From: Escherichia phage ime
Sequence record: MN850576.1
Direction: 5' to 3' (one strand)
Length of the DNA stretch: 64,000 nucleotides
Position numbers and translations under genes: made by a program
Notes under the pieces: generated by a model
The model's input: the letters and a program-made list of their open reading frames with translations, nothing else
What the model was told of the DNA's origin: nothing
Database searches by the model: none
Shown: positions 5,604 through 60,486 of the stretch, piece after piece
How the letters are laid out: the number at the start of each line of letters is the position of its first letter
Numbering within the stretch: the first letter of the stretch is position 1

Positions 5604-5702
5604 GGTGCTAGGTGATGGAATCGAACCACCTATGTATTCAACGACTACCTCGTCTATTTTCAGGATTAAAAATCCTCGCCCTTGCCAAAGGGCTTACCTA
5701 GC
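5604..5702 (-). tRNA. aberrant tRNA-like element (Lys-TTT-like anticodon arm; about 25-nt insertion in variable region); possible pseudo-tRNA
   Basis: Perfect 7-bp acceptor GCTAGGT/ACCTAGC, D-arm GCCC-TTTGGCAA-GGGC, T-arm GGTGG-TTCGATT-CCATC, anticodon arm AGGA-TTTTTAA-TCCT; about 30 nt between anticodon and T arms; CC but no terminal A encoded. Confidence 0.4.
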
Positions 5703-41601: not shown

Positions 41602-41919
41602 ATGCAAATTGAAATCACTGGCAACGTAGAAATCACTGAAGGTATGGTGTCTTTCATTTCCCACAAAATGTCTAAGCTGGAGCGTTTGCATCCCTCTGCC
41701 AACTATGCACGTGTGAGTGTAAAAGTTGAAAATGATCACCAGGAAGTTATGGCGTTCATTTTTGACAATTCTGGAAAAGAAGTTATTGCCAAAGCTAAAG
41801 GCAGTGATGCTTACGAGGCAACTGACCGTATGGTAGATGTTGCAGCACGTCAACTGGCTAAATGCGGTGGAAAGAAAGGTAAGGGGAAAGGCAAAGTAAA
41901 GATTGACTTTGGAGAATGA
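41602..41919 (+). CDS. hpf: ribosome hibernation promoting factor / RaiA (YfiA) family homolog
   Basis: MQIEITGNVEITEGMVSFISHKMSKLERL ... VSVKVEND ... AKAKGSDAYEATDRMVDVAARQLAK parallels E. coli HPF/RaiA along its whole length (from memory); own promoter; Lys/Gly-rich tail. Confidence 0.8.
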   Translation: MQIEITGNVEITEGMVSFISHKMSKLERLHPSANYARVSVKVENDHQEVMAFIFDNSGKEVIAKAKGSDAYEATDRMVDVAARQLAKCGGKKGKGKGKVKIDFGE

Positions 41920-45866: not shown

Positions 45867-46199
45867 ATGGGTATACCGATCACTGTAAAAGAATTGAATG
45901 AACGTGATGCAGGTGGTCTATGGCCTGCACGAAAAATACGCTGCATCCGTATGAAAGAGAACCTTGAGCATCTTGAGCAACAGAAACGGATTGAGGTTGG
46001 TGATATTTTCGAAGTATTTTATTCTGATCGCCGTAACTGGGAAACCATTCAACCTTCCGGTTTTGTTCTTGCTAAGCTTGACACTGGAGAAGTGATTGTT
46101 CCTGGGTTGGATATTGTCTTCGAAATTATCCAGGAGTGGGATCCGGACAAGATTAGATACGAAGAGCTATTCGGTGAAGGTATTATCAAACCTGTGTGA
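45867..46199 (+). CDS. hypothetical protein
   Basis: 110-aa ORF after AAGGAG. Confidence 0.45.
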   Translation: MGIPITVKELNERDAGGLWPARKIRCIRMKENLEHLEQQKRIEVGDIFEVFYSDRRNWETIQPSGFVLAKLDTGEVIVPGLDIVFEIIQEWDPDKIRYEELFGEGIIKPV

Positions 46200-46207
46200 G
46201 GTGGATT

Positions 46208-46507
46208 ATGTCTACAAAGGCGGCTAAATACTCCTACATGCCATCAACCTCTGCAGAGGTAGACTTTAGTTTCGATGTGTTTCCACTGTTTGAGGTGGTT
46301 CTGGCATACCCAACAATACTATCTACTCCTGAATCACTTGTGCCTGTTAAGTTGCAGAACGCTATGCATTCCATGCACTACAACAACAAATGTAGGCACA
46401 GATGGTGTCAGGACGAGGAAAAAGATTTGGATAGTTTGAGAGATTTTGACAGTCACCTTTTGACACCTTTCAGCTACTCCAACCTTGATAAGCCCTCGTG
46501 GGTATAG
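46208..46507 (+). CDS. hypothetical protein
   Basis: Met 46208 after GAGGTGG. Confidence 0.4.
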   Translation: MSTKAAKYSYMPSTSAEVDFSFDVFPLFEVVLAYPTILSTPESLVPVKLQNAMHSMHYNNKCRHRWCQDEEKDLDSLRDFDSHLLTPFSYSNLDKPSWV

Positions 46508-46531
46508 CAAAATATCAAATTTAAGACACCT

Positions 46532-46558
46532 AGGACGCTCTGTGGCGTCCTTTTCTTT
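46532..46558 (+). terminator. rho-independent terminator
   Basis: AGGACGC-TCTGTG-GCGTCC(T) hairpin followed by TTTTCTTT. Confidence 0.6.
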
Positions 46559-46720
46559 ATCTGGTGCACGATTGCATACCTTGGGCAGTTAATCTCATTA
46601 CAGAGCGTTTAAGAGCTCCCTACAAACAACTCCATATTTCGAGCGTAGCGAGAACGCACGTCCGTTTTGACCCAAATCACCATACGCTCGGATTTTAACC
46701 AAACCCTCGCGGCGTTTCTG

Positions 46721-46749
46721 TTGACACATTACCGATCCAGTGATAGTAT
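46721..46749 (+). promoter_or_regulatory. sigma70-like promoter (TTGACA-N17-TAGTAT)
   Basis: -35 46721-46726, -10 46744-46749. Confidence 0.5.
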
Positions 46750-46781
46750 CCACACATAGTTTGTAGAATATGGAGTACACA

Positions 46782-46871
46782 ATGAGAACATTGTCCGAAG
46801 TTTTAGTGGTGATCCTGATGATCATTACGTCCATAGCGGCTGTTGCCGGAATACTCACGGGTGGAACATGA
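46782..46871 (+). CDS. hydrophobic micro-peptide, 29 aa
   Basis: ATG 46782 after GGAG; MRTLSEVLVVILMIITSIAAVAGILTGGT; ATGA-coupled to next ORF. Confidence 0.35.
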   Translation: MRTLSEVLVVILMIITSIAAVAGILTGGT

Positions 46872-47080
46872 TAAACACACATGCATCTGAAGAGACATCC
46901 AAAGGAGTGACTATATGTCCCTTGGCTGAGCCAGTGAAAGAGGAAAACTTAGATTCTGAAGATTCTCCATCTTCGCTCCAGGTAGATCCTGAGGCTGATG
47001 ACCTAACGTGGGAAGACATCGTAGATATCTGGTTCTCTATTATGCCTGAGCACGAAGAGTTCAGGGGTGGTAGACTATGA
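46868..47080 (+). CDS. hypothetical acidic protein
   Basis: 70-aa ORF. Confidence 0.4.
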   Translation: MINTHASEETSKGVTICPLAEPVKEENLDSEDSPSSLQVDPEADDLTWEDIVDIWFSIMPEHEEFRGGRL

Positions 47081-47201
47081 AGCACCGAGCCCACACAGGT
47101 TCCTCATGCTAAAGCATGGCCTGAAGAGGCAAACGTGCATAATTCCTGTGCATCGGAACGTATAAAACCCTGTTCACACTCTCATTTCCAGAGGAGATTT
47201 C

Positions 47202-47417
47202 ATGAAGATAGAAATATTTGGTGGAGCTGACAACACTCGTGGCCTGATTTACCTTGAATTCGATGAATCATACCTGCCAGAGGTGTTAAATATGGACTCT
47301 GTTGCTGATGCTTTGGGAGTAAGTCCTAAAGATCTCTACTCTGGTGCTGAGATTGATGGTTGGGAGGAGACCATGAACATTGATTTCAGTGAAGTAGGTG
47401 ATGAACCACTGGACTGA
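47202..47417 (+). CDS. small acidic protein (family A-like N-terminus MKIEIFGG)
   Basis: 71-aa ORF after GGAGA. Confidence 0.4.
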   Translation: MKIEIFGGADNTRGLIYLEFDESYLPEVLNMDSVADALGVSPKDLYSGAEIDGWEETMNIDFSEVGDEPLD

Positions 47418-47546
47418 CACACAATTAGCTGCCAGGCTAAAGTGCTGGAAGCGCACCTATAACACATCTTTCAACTAAATTTCCTACCACCACAATCACT
47501 TACCTCCCACACATGACTGTTTGCTTGTTTAGTGAGCAGTCATGCC

Positions 47547-47574
47547 TTGACATTCTTGCCTATCCTGATAAAAT
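47547..47574 (+). promoter_or_regulatory. sigma70-like promoter (TTGACA-N16-TAAAAT) facing an ORF-free region
   Basis: -35 47547-47552, -10 47569-47574; no ORF of 60 aa or more downstream on plus strand for over 2 kb. Confidence 0.45.
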
Positions 47575-47579
47575 TAAGT

Positions 47580-47860
47580 TCTTCTCTTTTCTTTTACCGA
47601 GTAATTCGGGTTTTCTGTTCTCTTCGGTTTGAAGGGGTATGGAGATACACCTGAGTGAACAGGGTGAACAACCGAACCATTGGCTATGGCATTAGCATGG
47701 CGAAGCGGACGGGTGACGAAAGAGGGGCCGGAGGACACCAGTCACTGCCATATGGTATATGGGTGATAACCTGAAGAGTCTGAATAAGTGTTTAAGTACC
47801 AGTCAGAGGAAAAGGTGAATGGTAGCCGAAGGGGGAGGGGGGTTTCTTGTATCTTTAATT
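47580..47860 (+). ncRNA. candidate non-coding transcript (unclassified)
   Basis: Promoter-proximal ORF-free stretch with locally elevated GC and G-rich tract (GAAGGGGGAGGGGGG) followed by TTTCTTGTATCTTT. Confidence 0.2.
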
Positions 47861-48912
47861 TGTATATTATGTATACACTTGTAAACCAATCTCATCTGAA
47901 TCTGTTTACCACACAAAGCGGATAGAGACAAATATCACCTATTAAACTTGAATTATTTATAGAAAATACCACAACACCACTTAAGTCTTTGATTTTACAC
48001 ACAAATCCTACAGATATTCAACCTCCATATTTAACATACTTGTAACATATTCCATACTCTACCTGTCTGATCAATCTACCCAACCACATCCTTCATATTT
48101 TCCCTGTCTGTACCACCCCTGCCCCGCCGGGAGTCCCGTCATATCTGGCTTTCCAGTAAATAGCACACCCACAAATATCATTGCCTGAAGAGGGTTTCAT
48201 CCCATAATACATGCCTTACCTGAAGAGCGCTTCATACACCACGTAAATTTTTTAATTGACCTGCAATTTTCCCGTCATGACCCCCCCCCTGCCCCGCCGG
48301 AGAGGTTGGCTTTTCCCACACAGACCTGAAGAGTCAGCCAGAAATATCTGAACAGGTCCAGTTCTGCCTTGTCATGAGCCGTAGCGACTGGAGTGCTGCC
48401 AGGCGGACGGAATGGGAATACTTCTCATTCTTATAATAATTCTCAAATATCGAGGCAGTGAGGCAAATTAATAGGTGAGGCCGTTCACACAGTGGCACAA
48501 CATTTGCAATCTATTTTGTGAGGGTGAATGAGAATACCTATCATTGTGAGAACCTTTATCATTACGGGCAATTTAACATAATACCCATTATGCGCACCAC
48601 TGGCGATACATACAGGGATTGATACCATGAGTTACAGTTTACGCATATAACAATCATATTTCTTACTATTTGTGTGGGATATAGTTAGCAACCAATAGAT
48701 TAGATATTGACCTACAGACTTCCAACCGTCTAGACGTCTAAACGCCCACACACCAAGGGTTATACATACATTACTGAATGTAAACAGGGCCGCAAAAATG
48801 CTACCATACCAGTTTGTAAATTTTTCATGCAGCACTTGACAAAGAGGAGAAAAACTTGTCTGACATAATGTGACCTAACTGACACAACATGACACTTTTA
48901 CACACCTATTAG

Positions 48913-48984
48913 TTTACACACTGGATTGTTTACATTCCTGATTGTTCACATGCTAACCATTTACATGATTGACTGTTTACACAC
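48913..48984. repeat. iteron-like direct repeats (five TTTACA/TTCACA copies, loosely DnaA-box-like)
   Basis: GTTTACACA 48913-48921, TGTTTACAT 48927-48935, TTGTTCACA 48942-48950, ATTTACAT 48959-48966, TGTTTACACA 48975-48984; further copies near 49395-49455. Confidence 0.55.
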
Positions 48985-48993
48985 CGATAATCA

Positions 48994-49251
48994 GCCATGC
49001 CATTCGTTTGCATGACAATAATTATACATGACAATAATCGCACTGATTATAATTAGCATGACATAATATAAAAGCAGGGCAACTATTAGCAGATCTATAG
49101 TTGCCTTGCTTGTTATGTCATGATTAACTAAATACAAGGCAACTATGATCTGATTAATAGTTTGCAGACAAACTATCACGGGGGTGATGGTTACTGCTTT
49201 TATATTATGTCGCGACTCCGTCGCGCCATGCCATTCGTTTGCATAGTTGCC
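48994..49251. repeat. composite repeat: 20-bp direct repeat, 18-20 bp inverted repeat, four GGCAACTAT/ATAGTTGCC copies
   Basis: GCCATGCCATTCGTTTGCAT at 48994-49013 and 49225-49244; ATGACATAATATAAAAGCAG 49058-49077 vs its reverse complement 49194-49211; GGCAACTAT at 49078, 49138 and ATAGTTGCC at 49097, 49243. Confidence 0.7.
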
Positions 49252-49861
49252 TTATTGTTACAGATAAAATAATTGTATTGTTAATTATTTCTTATCTTTC
49301 TATTAGTCATCTAATGATTTCAGTTAATATAGTAACGTACAGTAAACATTAGACGACTAAAGATTTCTCTGCTTATGGTAACCTAACGTGACAATTCCAG
49401 ACTGTTTACGAAAAATGTTGACACCTGGGCCGATTTATGTTATGCAGTTTACACGAATAATTATTTTATGCAGGTATTGACTATTCCGTTATTCTATGGT
49501 TGGAATAAATGCTTAGCAGGCTATAGAATGGCGAGCGTACGTAAATTCTGAGATCTGGCGGCTATAGTTATACTCGATTTTTCACGTAGAAAACGCTTTT
49601 GTAGCTATGTAAGTGTATGACTTATAAAGATTTTTAGTTGTTGACAAGATATTGGAGATGTGCATCAGATTAAATTTTGTGCAATAGCTACATTACGTGC
49701 ACTTTTGGAAGAAAAAACGTGTAAAAATGGCCCTGCTACCACACAATGAAAGATTATGCAATAGTTATTTTATATGTATATTTGTACAGTGTGTGGGATT
49801 AATGGCTAGTCAATTATTCCACTTGCCAGGTAGGGCCGTTTATGGTAGGAGAAGAGCAGAC

Positions 49862-49886
49862 AAAAAGAAAGGGGCCTTTAAGCCCC
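49862..49886 (-). terminator. rho-independent terminator (minus strand)
   Basis: On minus strand GGGGC...GCCCC hairpin followed by TTTCTTTTTG; downstream of gene 49907-50326. Confidence 0.55.
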
Positions 49887-49906
49887 TTGATAATTCAGTT
49901 AAGAAA

Positions 49907-50326
49907 TTATAATGATTCGTATATTTCAAAAATCCGATTTGCCAGGTCGTTACGGTAGCGGAATTTTTCATCACGCTTGATCATTAAATCCTTATAGCCG
50001 TACTCTTTAAGCACTTCATTAACTTTATGGCGGCATACCTGCATATTATCTTGAGCGTCACCAATAAACTTGTTGCTGTGGTGCATTGCTTTAATTTCTT
50101 CTTCCAGGACCAGGGCAACTACCCGGACCGGATCAAGCTGGTAGGCGGTAACATCCATGCGGCATTGTAGACGGCTTTTAACGTCTGCCACCGGATATAC
50201 TGCAACCTCTTCCCCGTCAACATTAACAATAACTAGTTTACCATCGATTTCGAATCCTTTCGCCGCCGGACCGTGACAAAAAGCGTTATCAAAGCTATAT
50301 GCCGGATTATCAGATTTAATGTTCAT
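49907..50326 (-). CDS. hypothetical protein
   Basis: 139-aa ORF; minus-strand promoter TTGACA-N17-TATATT and SD AAGAGG upstream. Confidence 0.5.
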   Translation of the reverse strand: MNIKSDNPAYSFDNAFCHGPAAKGFEIDGKLVIVNVDGEEVAVYPVADVKSRLQCRMDVTAYQLDPVRVVALVLEEEIKAMHHSNKFIGDAQDNMQVCRHKVNEVLKEYGYKDLMIKRDEKFRYRNDLANRIFEIYESL

Positions 50327-50469
50327 GGTGTTTTTACCTCTTAGTTAATTTTCTTACAACTTCCCTTCAAAAAGAATATAGCAAAACTGCCGATCCCTGT
50401 CAACCAAGGATAGCATAATTTTTATGTGATCAAGGGGCTTTATTGCCCCTGACCATGTAACTTGTTGTA

Positions 50470-50733
50470 TTATTTGTTGCTCATCCAGTTTTCCCAAGCT
50501 GCCTGATAATCTGCCTCACTACGGCGGATCTCTTCTTGTTCTTCACGCCGGATCTCTTCTTCCAGGTACCCCAGTATATCGGCTTTTTTGGTCTGGCGTA
50601 ACATCCAATCATCTTTTTTACGAGTAAAGATCTTATAAGCTTTCTCGCAAACCTCTTTTTTGCTACCTTTCTGGACTTCAAGAATTCTGTAGGCCATGTA
50701 CTGAACTAATTTAAGCTGATCCAGACGTTTCAT
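50470..50733 (-). CDS. hypothetical protein
   Basis: 87-aa ORF in leftward block. Confidence 0.4.
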   Translation of the reverse strand: MKRLDQLKLVQYMAYRILEVQKGSKKEVCEKAYKIFTRKKDDWMLRQTKKADILGYLEEEIRREEQEEIRRSEADYQAAWENWMSNK

Positions 50734-50810
50734 GATGTTTCCTCTTTATGTGGTTCGTTTTGATTAGTTGATAATACAGCAGTTCGCAGATCAGTCTTTA
50801 GCAATTCATG

Positions 50811-51029
50811 CTATTTACTCACAACGGTGTCGAAAACAAATTTTTCTTTATTGTCTAAACTCACGTATCCGATTCGACCACGCAAGCCGCAAGTAGTGCC
50901 GTACTCGTAACCATTAAGGCCTTTAACCTTCCAATCCGTACCCATTAAAACCGCATTATATTCCTGACCAACTACAAAAGCGCCCCCAGTCGATTCAATG
51001 CAAACAACTTTAATTTTACGGGTTGTCAT
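50811..51029 (-). CDS. hypothetical protein
   Basis: 72-aa ORF. Confidence 0.4.
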   Translation of the reverse strand: MTTRKIKVVCIESTGGAFVVGQEYNAVLMGTDWKVKGLNGYEYGTTCGLRGRIGYVSLDNKEKFVFDTVVSK

Positions 51030-59629: not shown

Positions 59630-60304
59630 CGATTATTTTAAATTATTTTTATGATAGAATCCACCTGCCGCCCCCGCCAGGTTAACCACCATTTTTTCGT
59701 ACTCTTCTTTATGTTCCCGCGCTTCTGTATCATTAATCACTACATTTCCCAGGTGAGTAGCATTACCTTTCATTTTTGTACCTCCTCTTCAATTGTTTAC
59801 CCTACAGCATGGGCCTACCAGGTTTGCAAGATTTCACCCTCTCCCACCTGGTCAGTTAGGTCCTGCCAGGCTGGCCCCGCCAGGTTGCAACGGTTAGCGC
59901 ATCAGGTTAGAAAAATTTTTTGAAAAGGTGTTGACAGCGGCCCCGCCAGGGGGCACAATATACCTATCGAAAGGACGGCAGGCACCGGTGACGGTGGAGA
60001 CAACCACCGGGGATGGGCGCTGCATAAAATGAGAACGGTTATCATTATCATTTAAAAATTTATGCAAAAAATCCTTGCCTTCTTTGTCCTGTGTGATACT
60101 ATAATAACAAGCCGGGGCAACAGGGGCCGGGAGACAATCACCGGGCCTGCCCGTTATTCTGCAAACGAGAATGATTATCATTCAAAATTCTAAATGAGAA
60201 CTCCTCGCATTTAATAAATTTAATTAGCATGCTAATTACCCTCCGTAACAATTTCCTATAAAACAGTATCCCATAAAATATTCCCATATAGAAATTTTAA
60301 AAAT

Positions 60305-60486
60305 CCATTTCTGAAAACGAAAAATCGATTTCGTCCCCAAAAATTTCAGGTCGAGAGCTGGAACGATTTCCAGAAAATCCGATTCAGAAAACGAAAAACA
60401 GATCGAGTACTTGGAAATTTATCGAGAAAAATTTTCAGAAAATTCAATCTTTGAAACGAAAAACAGATCGAGTACTTGGAAAGCTG
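60305..60486. repeat. tandem direct repeats, about 66-bp period, 2.5 copies
   Basis: AAACGAAAAACAGATCGAGTACTTGGAAA at 60388-60417 and 60454-60483 nearly identical; degenerate copy at 60314-60345; TTCAGAAAA sub-motif recurs. Confidence 0.75.

Follow-up and report, generated by a model that had tools for sequence, protein, structure and literature searches.

The closest described counterparts of the locus examined here are the terminal repeats of the coliphages Gotham (459 bp), HdK5 and EdH4 (458 bp), the ends of which were derived from virion sequencing reads by two groups (PMC6563267, PMC7471380). The data of the two laboratories (PacBio, Illumina) agree on the ends; the published notes give the repeat length only, without flanking blocks, arrays or edge motifs. 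In rV5, a "non-coding" box was drawn between genes 163 and 164, free of ORFs and coincident with a switch in skew (Kropinski et al. 2013; PMC3606486). That paper assigned no function to the box and annotated no promoter at it, and the chromosome ends were not known at the time. Short terminal repeats have also been reported for two genera of the Stephanstirmvirinae (PMC12210895, PMC12695924). In Phapecoctavirus Mt1B1_P17 (hereafter P17), a 328-bp repeat lies in a non-coding region adjoining a homologue of the 139-aa gene described below, and in Justusliebigvirus BME3 a 342-bp repeat lies in a non-coding region at the record ends. The cos region of lambda (cosQ-cosN-cosB) combines a cut site with an inner array of terminase-binding repeats and an outer, separate short signal. 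For T7, Dunn and Studier are said to have described, in 1983, arrays of short repeats beside the terminal repeat, as well as the promoter phiOR. In T7 and T3, a polymerase paused at the concatemer junction recruits gp18/gp19 to start packaging (PMC3276506).

The phage studied here is a Vequintavirus (an rV5-like coliphage), and the region at 47,420-49,900 of the window, i.e., of the whole 64-kb stretch of DNA analysed, is 90-97% identical to 121 Vequintavirus records. Homology indicates that this is probably the chromosome-end (concatemer-junction) region of the phage. The repeats of Gotham, HdK5 and EdH4 are the same element, with gap-free homology, identical edges and the same location, flanked by the 71-aa gene and by the 139-aa/87-aa genes; the rV5 box is the same locus, as rV5 104,016-106,611 aligns to the region. 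The find is, in our opinion, real but largely ordinary: its core is already known for close relatives, since the non-coding box was drawn in 2013 and the terminal repeat was published in 2019-2020, and the new contribution is the fine anatomy only. The region as a whole is a mosaic of block A, a G-poor tract, the terminal repeat, repeat arrays, block B and an AT-rich stretch, which, together with the bordering genes, are arranged as follows:

47,202-47,417, plus strand: last gene of the rightward block, 71 aa, function unassigned, matching phrog_12108; left border of the non-coding region
47,510-47,844, plus strand: block A, an ultra-conserved non-coding unit with a promoter (47,547-47,574), followed by a G-rich stretch of about 265 nt that terminates in G5AG6 (47,831-47,842)
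47,845-48,401, plus strand: G-poor, C/A-rich tract, AT-rich at its start; GC skew -0.25 to -0.56, GC 0.28-0.30 at 47,850-48,074
48,402-48,860, no strand: direct terminal repeat by homology, 459 bp, aligning end to end and without gaps with the Gotham and HdK5 terminal repeats
48,529-48,563, plus strand: 17-bp motif TGAGAAYNYYTATCATT in two tandem copies, within the terminal repeat (6 matches in the window against 0.51 expected)
48,861-48,896, plus strand: array of 9-10-nt TGACAYNNT-type repeats, read from the sequence, which begins at the first base past the right edge of the terminal repeat
48,897-48,988, plus strand: six 16-nt "iterons" from a repeat search, consensus approximately ACTGTTTACR plus a variable spacer
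48,994-49,013, plus strand, with copy 2 at 49,225-49,244: 20-bp direct repeat GCCATGCCATTCGTTTGCAT, a 100% identical pair conserved in relatives
49,056-49,262, no strand: block B, an ultra-conserved cluster of nested palindromes; fraction of variable sites 0.106 (27 genomes), with 77 of 119 records matching at 99% identity or more
49,263-49,868, no strand: AT-rich spacer, GC 0.30-0.39, variable sites 0.34, with scattered TTGACA hexamers and two GTTTAC copies
49,869-49,888, minus strand: intrinsic terminator of the leftward gene block (8-bp stem with 5 G-C pairs, and a T-run); the Alma, HdK5 and Gotham records carry a terminator annotation for it
49,907-50,326, minus strand: first gene of the leftward block, 139 aa, function unassigned, matching phrog_12277; right border of the region

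Conservation was counted in 17 relatives for the retention of motifs and ORFs, and in 27 genomes for fractions of variable sites and for the repeat edges.

The Gotham record carries an annotated repeat_region, 1-459 being the same as 136,567-137,025, which aligns to 48,402-48,860; the identical 459 bp found at both ends of the HdK5 record map to the same interval without gaps. As this read-derived repeat of relatives maps here, a packaging or terminus region, which was among the options raised in the preliminary description, is supported. The ends come from virion reads in Gotham, HdK5 and EdH4 and from homology in the present phage. The left edge reads ...GGAGTGCTGCCA|GGCGGACGG and the right edge ...AAAAACTTGTC|TGACATAAT; both are identical to those of Gotham and nearly invariant in the 27 genomes. 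Beyond the right edge, similarity is lost within 5 nt, and immediately outside the left edge it gives way to indels. By arithmetic on alignment coordinates, the right edge is also the end of the YN3 and ECP2303 records, and the left edge the start of ECP2309. The 64-kb window holds a single copy of the repeat, near-matches to its edge motifs elsewhere in the window stay at chance level, and no clear motif common to the two edges was seen within Vequintavirus. A scan of IMG/VR with a conserved 34-mer returned a single contig. Metagenome contigs pass uninterrupted through the region, so that contig ends are uninformative on the termini.

The sequence 48,402-48,860 is thus predicted to lie at both ends of the virion chromosome. 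As has been shown for the relatives, the packaged DNA would be a unique linear molecule running from 48,402 to position 48,860 of the following genome copy, which would place the 459 bp at both ends. By the model of T7/T3-type phages, replication would yield head-to-tail concatemers with one repeat copy per junction, terminase would recognise sequences at both invariant edges, or close to them, and cut there, and strand-displacement synthesis would duplicate the repeat, giving each virion a full repeat at both ends. The conserved and repeated elements that flank the repeat are most likely putative cis-sites for end cutting and packaging. With lower confidence, those positioning the machinery may be the CTGAAGAG boxes of the G-poor tract on the left side and the TGACAY 9-10-mers, the 16-nt repeats and the block B palindromes on the right; the same elements may possibly double as putative cis-sites of replication initiation.

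The repeats of the Stephanstirmvirinae resemble the present one in lying inside an approximately 2-kb non-coding region and in carrying two copies of a TGAGAAT..TTATCATT palindrome. Their edges look related by eye: GRRGTGCTT|AACGCG on the left in P17 and BME3 corresponds to GGAGTGCTGCCA|GGCGGA here, and AAGARAR..GCT|CAACAWAT on the right to AGGAGAAAAACTTGTC|TGACATAAT. Homologues of the 139-aa gene (about 90% amino-acid identity) adjoin the record ends in several Phapecoctavirus records. Otherwise, however, sequence similarity is not detectable; in the Stephanstirmvirinae, transcription of the left-hand genes runs away from the repeat, and counterparts of block A and of the GGCAACTAT palindrome are absent there. 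In Septuagintavirus A5-4, the tract equivalent to the G-poor one also contains CTGAAGAG-type boxes, and a pair similar to the 20-bp direct repeat (..CGCCA..CCATACTCTGGCAA) can be recognised by eye. An equivalent locus in Mydovirus and Seunavirus, sought via a nearby gene for a 101-aa regulator, was not located, the gene order being different there.

The likeness to the T7/T3 junction lies in layout: a short exact repeat in non-coding DNA, arrays of short repeats just outside it, and a promoter with no gene behind it that points at the right end. The two nevertheless differ in that no sequence similarity exists, that the present phage is a 137-kb myovirus that uses the host sigma-70 polymerase, that its large terminase matches T4-type Pfam domains, and that its repeat is 3 times longer. 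With lambda cos, the locus shares a cut site with flanking repeats, by analogy only, binding of the small terminase being no more than putative here; lambda has 12-nt cohesive ends as opposed to a 459-bp repeat.

The preliminary description had called the region free of any credible ORF, and this holds for both strands. The last rightward ORF stops at 47,417 and the first leftward ORF occupies 49,907-50,326. The longest internal ORFs (54-71 aa) are uninterrupted in just 2/17, 8/17, 6/17 and 3/17 relatives and match no PHROG family, for which reasons they were rejected as genes; both border genes do match, and the 71-aa gene is intact in all 17 relatives, with 29 of its 40 variable sites at codon position 3. 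Independent gene callers predicted no gene within the gap in 10 metagenome contigs. Neighbouring genes gave no recognised domains, Rfam 15 gave no match at E <= 1 in 46,000-51,000, ARAGORN found neither tRNA nor tmRNA in the region, and Chi sites are absent from it. A sliding RNAalifold/SCI screen of the 17-genome alignment showed no conserved structure where sequences vary, high SCI values occurring only at about 98% identity, and none in the AT-rich spacer at 49,263-49,868.

The features listed in that description are all present, a few coordinates being one base off, and every repeat claimed in it was found and is enriched. Its four-copy motif, CCTGAAGAG, occurs at 47,770, 48,184, 48,219 and 48,325 (the last three on the same strand within the G-poor tract), with a fifth copy at 47,120 and 7 copies in the window against 0.54 expected. 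The GC-rich motif said to occur twice corresponds to the C-runs CTGCCCCGCCGG of the G-poor tract, at 48,119 and 48,289 (two copies against 0.06 expected). The "TTTACA iteron-like repeats" are real TTTACA units with a 16-nt period. Counted over the whole window, the 7-mer GTTTACA by itself shows no enrichment (15 against 10.9 expected); the signal consists in tandem clustering at a 16-nt period over 48,897-48,981; Tandem Repeats Finder detected no array, the repeats being too degenerate. The 20-bp direct repeat (48,994 and 49,225), the 18-20 bp inverted repeat with a 116-bp spacer and the four copies of a paired motif were equally borne out. Block B contains an 18-bp inverted repeat (49,060-49,077 / 49,194-49,211, with 116 nt between the arms), and GGCAACTAT or its complement lies at 49,078, 49,097, 49,138 and 49,243 (window total 5 against 0.43 expected), being essentially confined to this block.

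Comparison with the 17 relatives divides these elements. The four CTGAAGAG boxes, the four GGCAACTAT copies and the G5AG6 tract keep their order and orientation in 17/17, but CTGCCCCGCCGG is less conserved (0-2 copies), and the 16-nt repeats range from about 1 copy in LL12, FFH2 and WM to about 10 in rV5, this array being the most variable part of the region (0.81 of sites variable in 27 genomes). The TGACAYNNT-type array also varies in copy number and spelling, and the G-poor tract has indel hot spots at 48,260-48,290 and 48,350-48,380. Variability in blocks A and B is 2-3 times lower than in the gene beside them. Block B further comprises two palindromes of the type GGCAACTAT-N10-ATAGTTGCC that lie 60 bp apart and whose spacers contain GATC, a terminator-like hairpin (49,171-49,192) and copy 2 of the 20-bp repeat; its single-strand fold reaches -52.7 kcal/mol (z = -10). 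In the FV3 record, only block B query positions 166-203 (the last 38 bases) match. Given this gap and the copy range of the 16-nt repeats, neither element is strictly essential, unless the FV3 record is misassembled.

In block A, the promoter-like element earlier noted as facing an ORF-free stretch proved to be a near-consensus sigma-70 promoter at 47,547-47,574, TTGACA-16-TAAAAT with an upstream TG (extended -10), with 11/12 matches. Over 27 genomes, 0.066 of the sites in block A vary, compared with 0.20 for the neighbouring gene and 0.39-0.45 for flanking non-coding DNA; 117 phage records match the block at 97.3% identity or more, and conservation stops immediately after G5AG6TT. GC skew is +0.30 to +0.44. 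No similarity to the block was found in 5,426 E. coli genomes or, within the phage collection, outside Vequintavirus, and A5-4, P17 and BME3 have no counterpart. With lower confidence, the promoter would fire a non-coding transcript toward the right end, a layout that resembles, by analogy, phiOR at the T7/T3 junction, where the paused polymerase helps to start packaging. The T7 analogy is weak for block A, because the host polymerase is used and because the Stephanstirmvirinae lack a comparable promoter arrangement. Plus-strand RNA of the G-poor tract has hardly any predicted structure (mean -3 to -10 kcal/mol per 120 nt), and such C-rich, G-poor RNA after block A would suit Rho-dependent termination ahead of the repeat. 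"Regulatory hub", another term of the preliminary description, is only partly apt, as the region offers one very strong, very conserved promoter without a gene behind it. We tentatively suggest, as an idea with perhaps one chance in a few of being right, that block A serves as a dedicated non-coding unit which the host polymerase transcribes early and in the direction of the right end, its transcription or its G-rich RNA with the G5AG6 end being needed in cis, whether to seed a replication R-loop or to mark the junction for terminase in the manner of phiOR and the pause site of T7.

Two other readings we consider very improbable. If packaging were headful, starting at a pac site and giving circular permutation, the 459-bp repeat of some records would be an artefact of assembly or analysis. 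Such packaging, with partial permutation, was inferred by PhageTerm for BpE1AUH, a Vequintavirus from a phage cocktail, in a 2026 paper that also reports a terminal repeat, from CheckV (PMC13211470); moreover, the GenBank records of the genus are mostly linearised at arbitrary points, their starts being spread over the genome. Yet two laboratories using PacBio and Illumina arrive at the same ends, several other records share these end coordinates, sharp boundaries of conservation coincide with the repeat edges, and the sister subfamilies likewise have short terminal repeats. Slightly less credible still is a mere buffer of decayed genes without specific function. The region does sit between convergent gene blocks, large parts of it are indel-rich, with 0.34-0.81 of sites variable, and the G-poor tract might be no more than a zone of Rho termination, but blocks A and B and both repeat edges, where this reading is contradicted, are far more conserved than neighbouring coding DNA, and the motif sets are kept in 17/17 genomes.

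The remaining alternatives would assign a further or different function to the elements beside the repeat. A replication origin, possibly alongside the terminus role, is a reading that we hold to be unlikely on balance, though the best placed of the alternatives: an initiator bound to the 16-nt repeats and the block B palindromes would open the adjacent AT-rich DNA, or an R-loop at block A would prime synthesis. Transcript-primed initiation is known from the T7 primary origin, T4 oriF/oriG, ColE1 RNA II and mitochondrial CSBII. In support, tandem repeats and GATC palindromes adjoin about 600 bp of DNA at GC 0.30-0.39, GGCAACTAT is all but restricted to the locus, as expected of a single cis-site, and the AT-rich DNA that should adjoin an iteron origin is present (GC 0.30-0.39 over 49,200-49,870; 0.28-0.30 over 47,850-48,074). 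On the other hand, the 16-nt period is not helically phased, copy number in viable relatives spans about 1 to about 10, the FV3 record has no match for most of block B, no initiator gene was identified, and the region holds only 2 DnaA boxes (TTWTNCACA), without a cluster, the window total of 10 being close to the 8.2 expected. The layout of an R-loop origin is present by composition, with a strong promoter, skew of up to +0.44 on the non-template strand, G5AG6 and then DNA of GC 0.28-0.30. By our own reading of its sequence, A5-4 also has a G5AG5AG5 run near its presumed repeat edge. The lack of a block A counterpart in A5-4, P17 and BME3 counts against an origin. A T7-type primase-helicase and a family-A polymerase occur in the phage family, in keeping with an origin; against it, strand skews, according to the rV5 authors, only follow the direction of transcription (PMC3606486). 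Neither a transcriptome nor an origin mapping was found in the literature on the genus. Slightly less likely again is a functional non-coding RNA of about 265 nt, encoded by block A and produced very early in infection, in which case the region would in part be a regulatory locus. The near-consensus promoter with its extended -10, a variability about one-third that of the neighbouring gene with its sharp end at G5AG6TT, and the lack of a PHROG match or of a conserved or plausible ORF with a ribosome-binding site all fit such an RNA, and the predicted fold pairs a 5' pyrimidine leader with the 3' G-tract. This fold is, however, no better than shuffles (z = -0.65), as is that of the opposite strand, Rfam gives nothing at E <= 1, the 3' end lacks an intrinsic terminator, and homologues are absent outside the genus and from E. 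coli. Covariation was not seen in block A, where substitutions are too few and the two variable spots do not co-vary.

The chromosome-end reading, which we prefer, has practical consequences. True ends matter because most of the approximately 120 deposited genomes of this genus of therapeutic phages are arbitrarily linearised, and some records carry spurious "hypothetical proteins" across the region, e.g., 14 in Mangalyan. The mapped repeat offers a natural coordinate origin for the genus, and the conserved flanking blocks are candidate minimal packaging and replication signals for phage engineering or transducing vectors. The fresh points are modest: a non-coding promoter unit more conserved than the adjoining genes, a palindrome cluster conserved to a similar degree, and edge motifs and a Fur-box-like site that recur in the terminal repeats of three genera. 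If the proposed role of block A is correct, it would, together with the Fur-box-like palindromes as putative host-factor sites in the repeat, tie end processing to host transcription or physiology.

The Fur-box-like site is the TGAGAAYNYYTATCATT motif, the sole BLAST-detectable similarity to the P17 terminal repeat; it is present in two copies in that of BME3. Of the two copies within the repeat, the first overlaps a weak sigma-70-like promoter (48,516-48,544). The likeness of these copies to the E. coli Fur box GATAATGATAATCATTATC is moderate (12/15 of the 7-1-7 core and fewer than 14/19), and scores are 17/19 in the BME3 repeat and 15/19 in that of P17. Matches to the motif cluster at 48,529-48,563 and at 60,030-60,211. 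A second ORF-poor patch lies at about 60 kb; it has only short words in common with the region and was rejected as a duplicate of it for this reason. The Fur-box score is 16/19 at 60,031 and 15/19 at 60,167.

The region between the two gene blocks (47,420–49,900) is truly non-coding. The preliminary description had found no credible gene there, and three observations agree with it: the internal ORFs of 54–71 aa are broken in most relatives, whereas every relative keeps the flanking gene intact; none of these ORFs has a PHROG match; and in all 10 independent metagenome contigs the gap was free of called genes. The rightward block stops at 47,417, and the leftward block, with an intrinsic terminator at 49,869–49,888, begins at 49,907–50,326; the large terminase, portal and ribonucleotide reductase genes also lie in the window. 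In the rV5 genome paper the locus appears as a grey "non-coding" box with no function given; for the rightward transcription unit, the paper's authors detected no intrinsic terminator (PMC3606486). The 2.5-kb region matched 121 phage records at 90–97% identity, and every one of them is a Vequintavirus (rV5-like coliphage). It should be noted that about 18 UNVERIFIED MG0656xx records labelled "Campylobacter phage" are 87–100% identical to Vequintavirus over the region; this naming almost certainly stems from contamination or wrong labelling of those deposits.

A number of Vequintavirus records in GenBank start at one and the same position inside this region. The Gotham record carries an annotated 459-bp repeat_region at both ends, and HdK5 has the same 459 bp at both ends, unannotated. 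Aligned without gaps to the window, the repeat runs from 48,402 (GGCGGACGG...) to 48,860 (...AAACTTGTC), which supports the packaging or terminus role, one of several proposed initially. In relatives, whose chromosome ends were derived from sequencing reads (PMC6563267, PMC7471380), the ends have been shown to be fixed, with a 459-bp repeat at these positions; the core identity of the locus, a non-coding box holding a short terminal repeat, is already published for phages about 95% identical. A later paper on a Vequintavirus from a phage cocktail infers headful packaging, but itself also reports a terminal repeat (PMC13211470), and we give this alternative little weight.

Independent support for the terminal repeat comes from conservation boundaries, which coincide sharply with its edges in alignments of 17, then 27 genomes. 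All 27 genomes share the right edge, AAAACTTGTC|TGACA, without variation, and beyond it similarity is lost within five bases. At the left edge, at least 25 of the 27 have an unchanged core, GCTGCCAGG|CGGACG; immediately left of this edge is an indel hot spot with duplicated ..GGAGTGCT.. units.

Fraction of variable sites across the region and the adjacent gene (27 genomes)
47,202–47,417 (+), adjacent 71-aa gene: 0.20
47,510–47,844, block A (promoter-bearing conserved unit): 0.066
47,845–48,401, G-poor tract: 0.39–0.45
48,402–48,860, terminal repeat: 0.21
48,861–49,055, repeat arrays: 0.81
49,056–49,262, block B (palindrome cluster): 0.11
49,263–49,868, AT-rich spacer: 0.34

As far as the literature was searched, neither the extremely high conservation seen in blocks A and B nor the match between conservation boundaries and repeat edges has been described before; such undescribed details of the region are, in our opinion, leads rather than findings.

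All features listed in the preliminary description were recovered, with coordinates within 1 base. These are the promoter (TTGACA-16-TAAAAT with an upstream TG, at 47,547); CCTGAAGAG at 47,770, 48,184, 48,219 and 48,325; CTGCCCCGCCGG, present twice; six TTTACA units with a 16-nt period (48,897–48,981); an exact 20-bp direct repeat; an 18-bp inverted repeat with a 116-nt spacer; and four copies of GGCAACTAT/ATAGTTGCC. A further CCTGAAGAG copy lies at 47,120, the window holding 7 against 0.54 expected.

Block A combines this strong promoter with a G-rich stretch of about 265 nt, in which GC skew reaches +0.44. The block ends exactly at G5AG6TT, where conservation ceases, and 117 records share it at 97.3% identity or more. 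Marks of a known or structured RNA are absent from it: no Rfam match was found (46,000–51,000 searched, E ≤ 1), its fold is not unusually stable against shuffles (z = -0.65), and the genome alignment revealed no covariation. Nor does it contain a plausible small ORF or show similarity to any of 5,426 E. coli genomes. The tract that follows is AT-rich at first, then strongly G-poor; its plus-strand RNA is predicted to be nearly unstructured, which suits Rho-dependent termination.

To the right of the repeat, 9–10-nt TGACAY units are followed by 16-nt ACTGTTTACR units, numbering from about 1 to about 10 among relatives. Block B consists of nested palindromes (single-strand fold z = -10); an equally good reading is a pair of GGCAACTAT-N10-ATAGTTGCC operators, separated by 60 bp and carrying GATC in their spacers. 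Within the window, GGCAACTAT is essentially confined to this locus. In the FV3 record, the match to block B is limited to the final 38 bases of the query. Just before block B, several relatives, including rV5, have an insertion about 50 nt long (GGTGACCTTTGGTCACCCCTTCGGGTGTTTCT) that the window lacks. Its two terminator-like hairpins hint at plus-strand transcription leaving the terminal repeat.

By analogy with T7/T3-type phages, concatemers would carry one repeat per junction, terminase would cut at both repeat edges, and strand displacement would duplicate the repeat. More tentatively, the conserved sequences and short repeats that flank the terminal repeat might position the cutting and packaging machinery, and the block A promoter might act like phiOR, the promoter at the T7/T3 concatemer junction, where a paused polymerase recruits gp18/gp19 (PMC3276506). 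A possible origin of replication, built on the iterons and AT-rich DNA or on an R-loop formed by the G-rich transcript of block A, has no direct support: the region has no DnaA-box cluster, repeat number varies among relatives, and no initiator gene was found.

Terminal repeats also occur in the sister groups. Stephanstirmvirinae generally end in direct terminal repeats (PMC12695924); Phapecoctavirus Mt1B1_P17 has identical 328-bp record ends, and Justusliebigvirus BME3 has 342-bp ends, a repeat also reported in the literature (PMC12210895). In both, as in the window, the repeat lies inside about 2 kb of non-coding DNA, which in P17 likewise adjoins a homologue of the 139-aa gene. Compared by eye, the left edges (GAAGTGCTT|AACGCG and GAGGTGCTT|AACGCG in the sister groups, GGAGTGCTGCCA|GGCGGA in the window) and the right edges (AAGAGAAGATGCT|CAACATAT and AAGAAAGTAGGCT|CAACAAAT against AGGAGAAAAACTTGTC|TGACATAAT) look related across the three genera, a possible lead that the literature searched does not describe. 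In Septuagintavirus A5-4 the corresponding gap measures 2.1 kb and holds TGCTGCCAGGC, boxes of the CTGAAGAG type, TTGACAAAGA... and two direct repeats that resemble the pair in the window.

The 139-aa gene itself (49,907–50,326, minus strand) has about 90–92% protein identity to counterparts in Phapecoctavirus, which belongs to another subfamily, and in several Phapecoctavirus records the homologue also lies near the record ends. Some Vequintavirus (nomo, Alma, Gotham, HdK5, WM) lack the gene. Its behaviour resembles that of a mobile "end-adjacent" gene.

The only sequence common to the Vequintavirus, Phapecoctavirus and Justusliebigvirus terminal repeats is the palindrome TGAGAAT..TTATCATT, present twice per repeat (window 48,529–48,563; Mt1B1_P17 ends; BME3 1–342). 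In BME3, one of the two agrees with the E. coli Fur box at 17/19 positions, and a host-factor site there would explain why the palindrome survives amid diverged surroundings. Judged from sequence, this 17-bp Fur-box-like element is a further candidate lead, not previously described in the literature searched.

A second ORF-poor patch, with locally reversed skews, lies within the leftward gene block (59,850–60,420) and contains two sigma-70-like promoters:
59,931, plus strand, TTGACA-17-CACAAT (promoter scan)
about 60,076, plus strand, TTGCCT..TG.TACTAT (by eye)

Downstream of each promoter comes a GC-rich unit about 55 nt long, with GGAGACAAYCACCGGG common to both units, and then the motif TGAGAAYNNTTATCATT (at 60,030, 60,166 and 60,195). 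This motif agrees with the Fur box at 15–16 of 19 positions. The patch could encode small RNAs or be a regulated divergent control region.

Elsewhere in the window, six ordinary tRNA genes form a cluster, inside which ARAGORN calls a 99-nt "tRNA-???" (5,604–5,702, minus strand) whose anticodon has four bases (atcc); this may be a degenerate tRNA or one that contains an intron. Finally, a 105-aa ORF at 41,602–41,919 (plus strand) has counterparts in related contigs with a precomputed Pfam match to Ribosomal_S30AE (hibernation-promoting factor/RaiA family), and would be a phage-encoded ribosome hibernation-factor-like protein.
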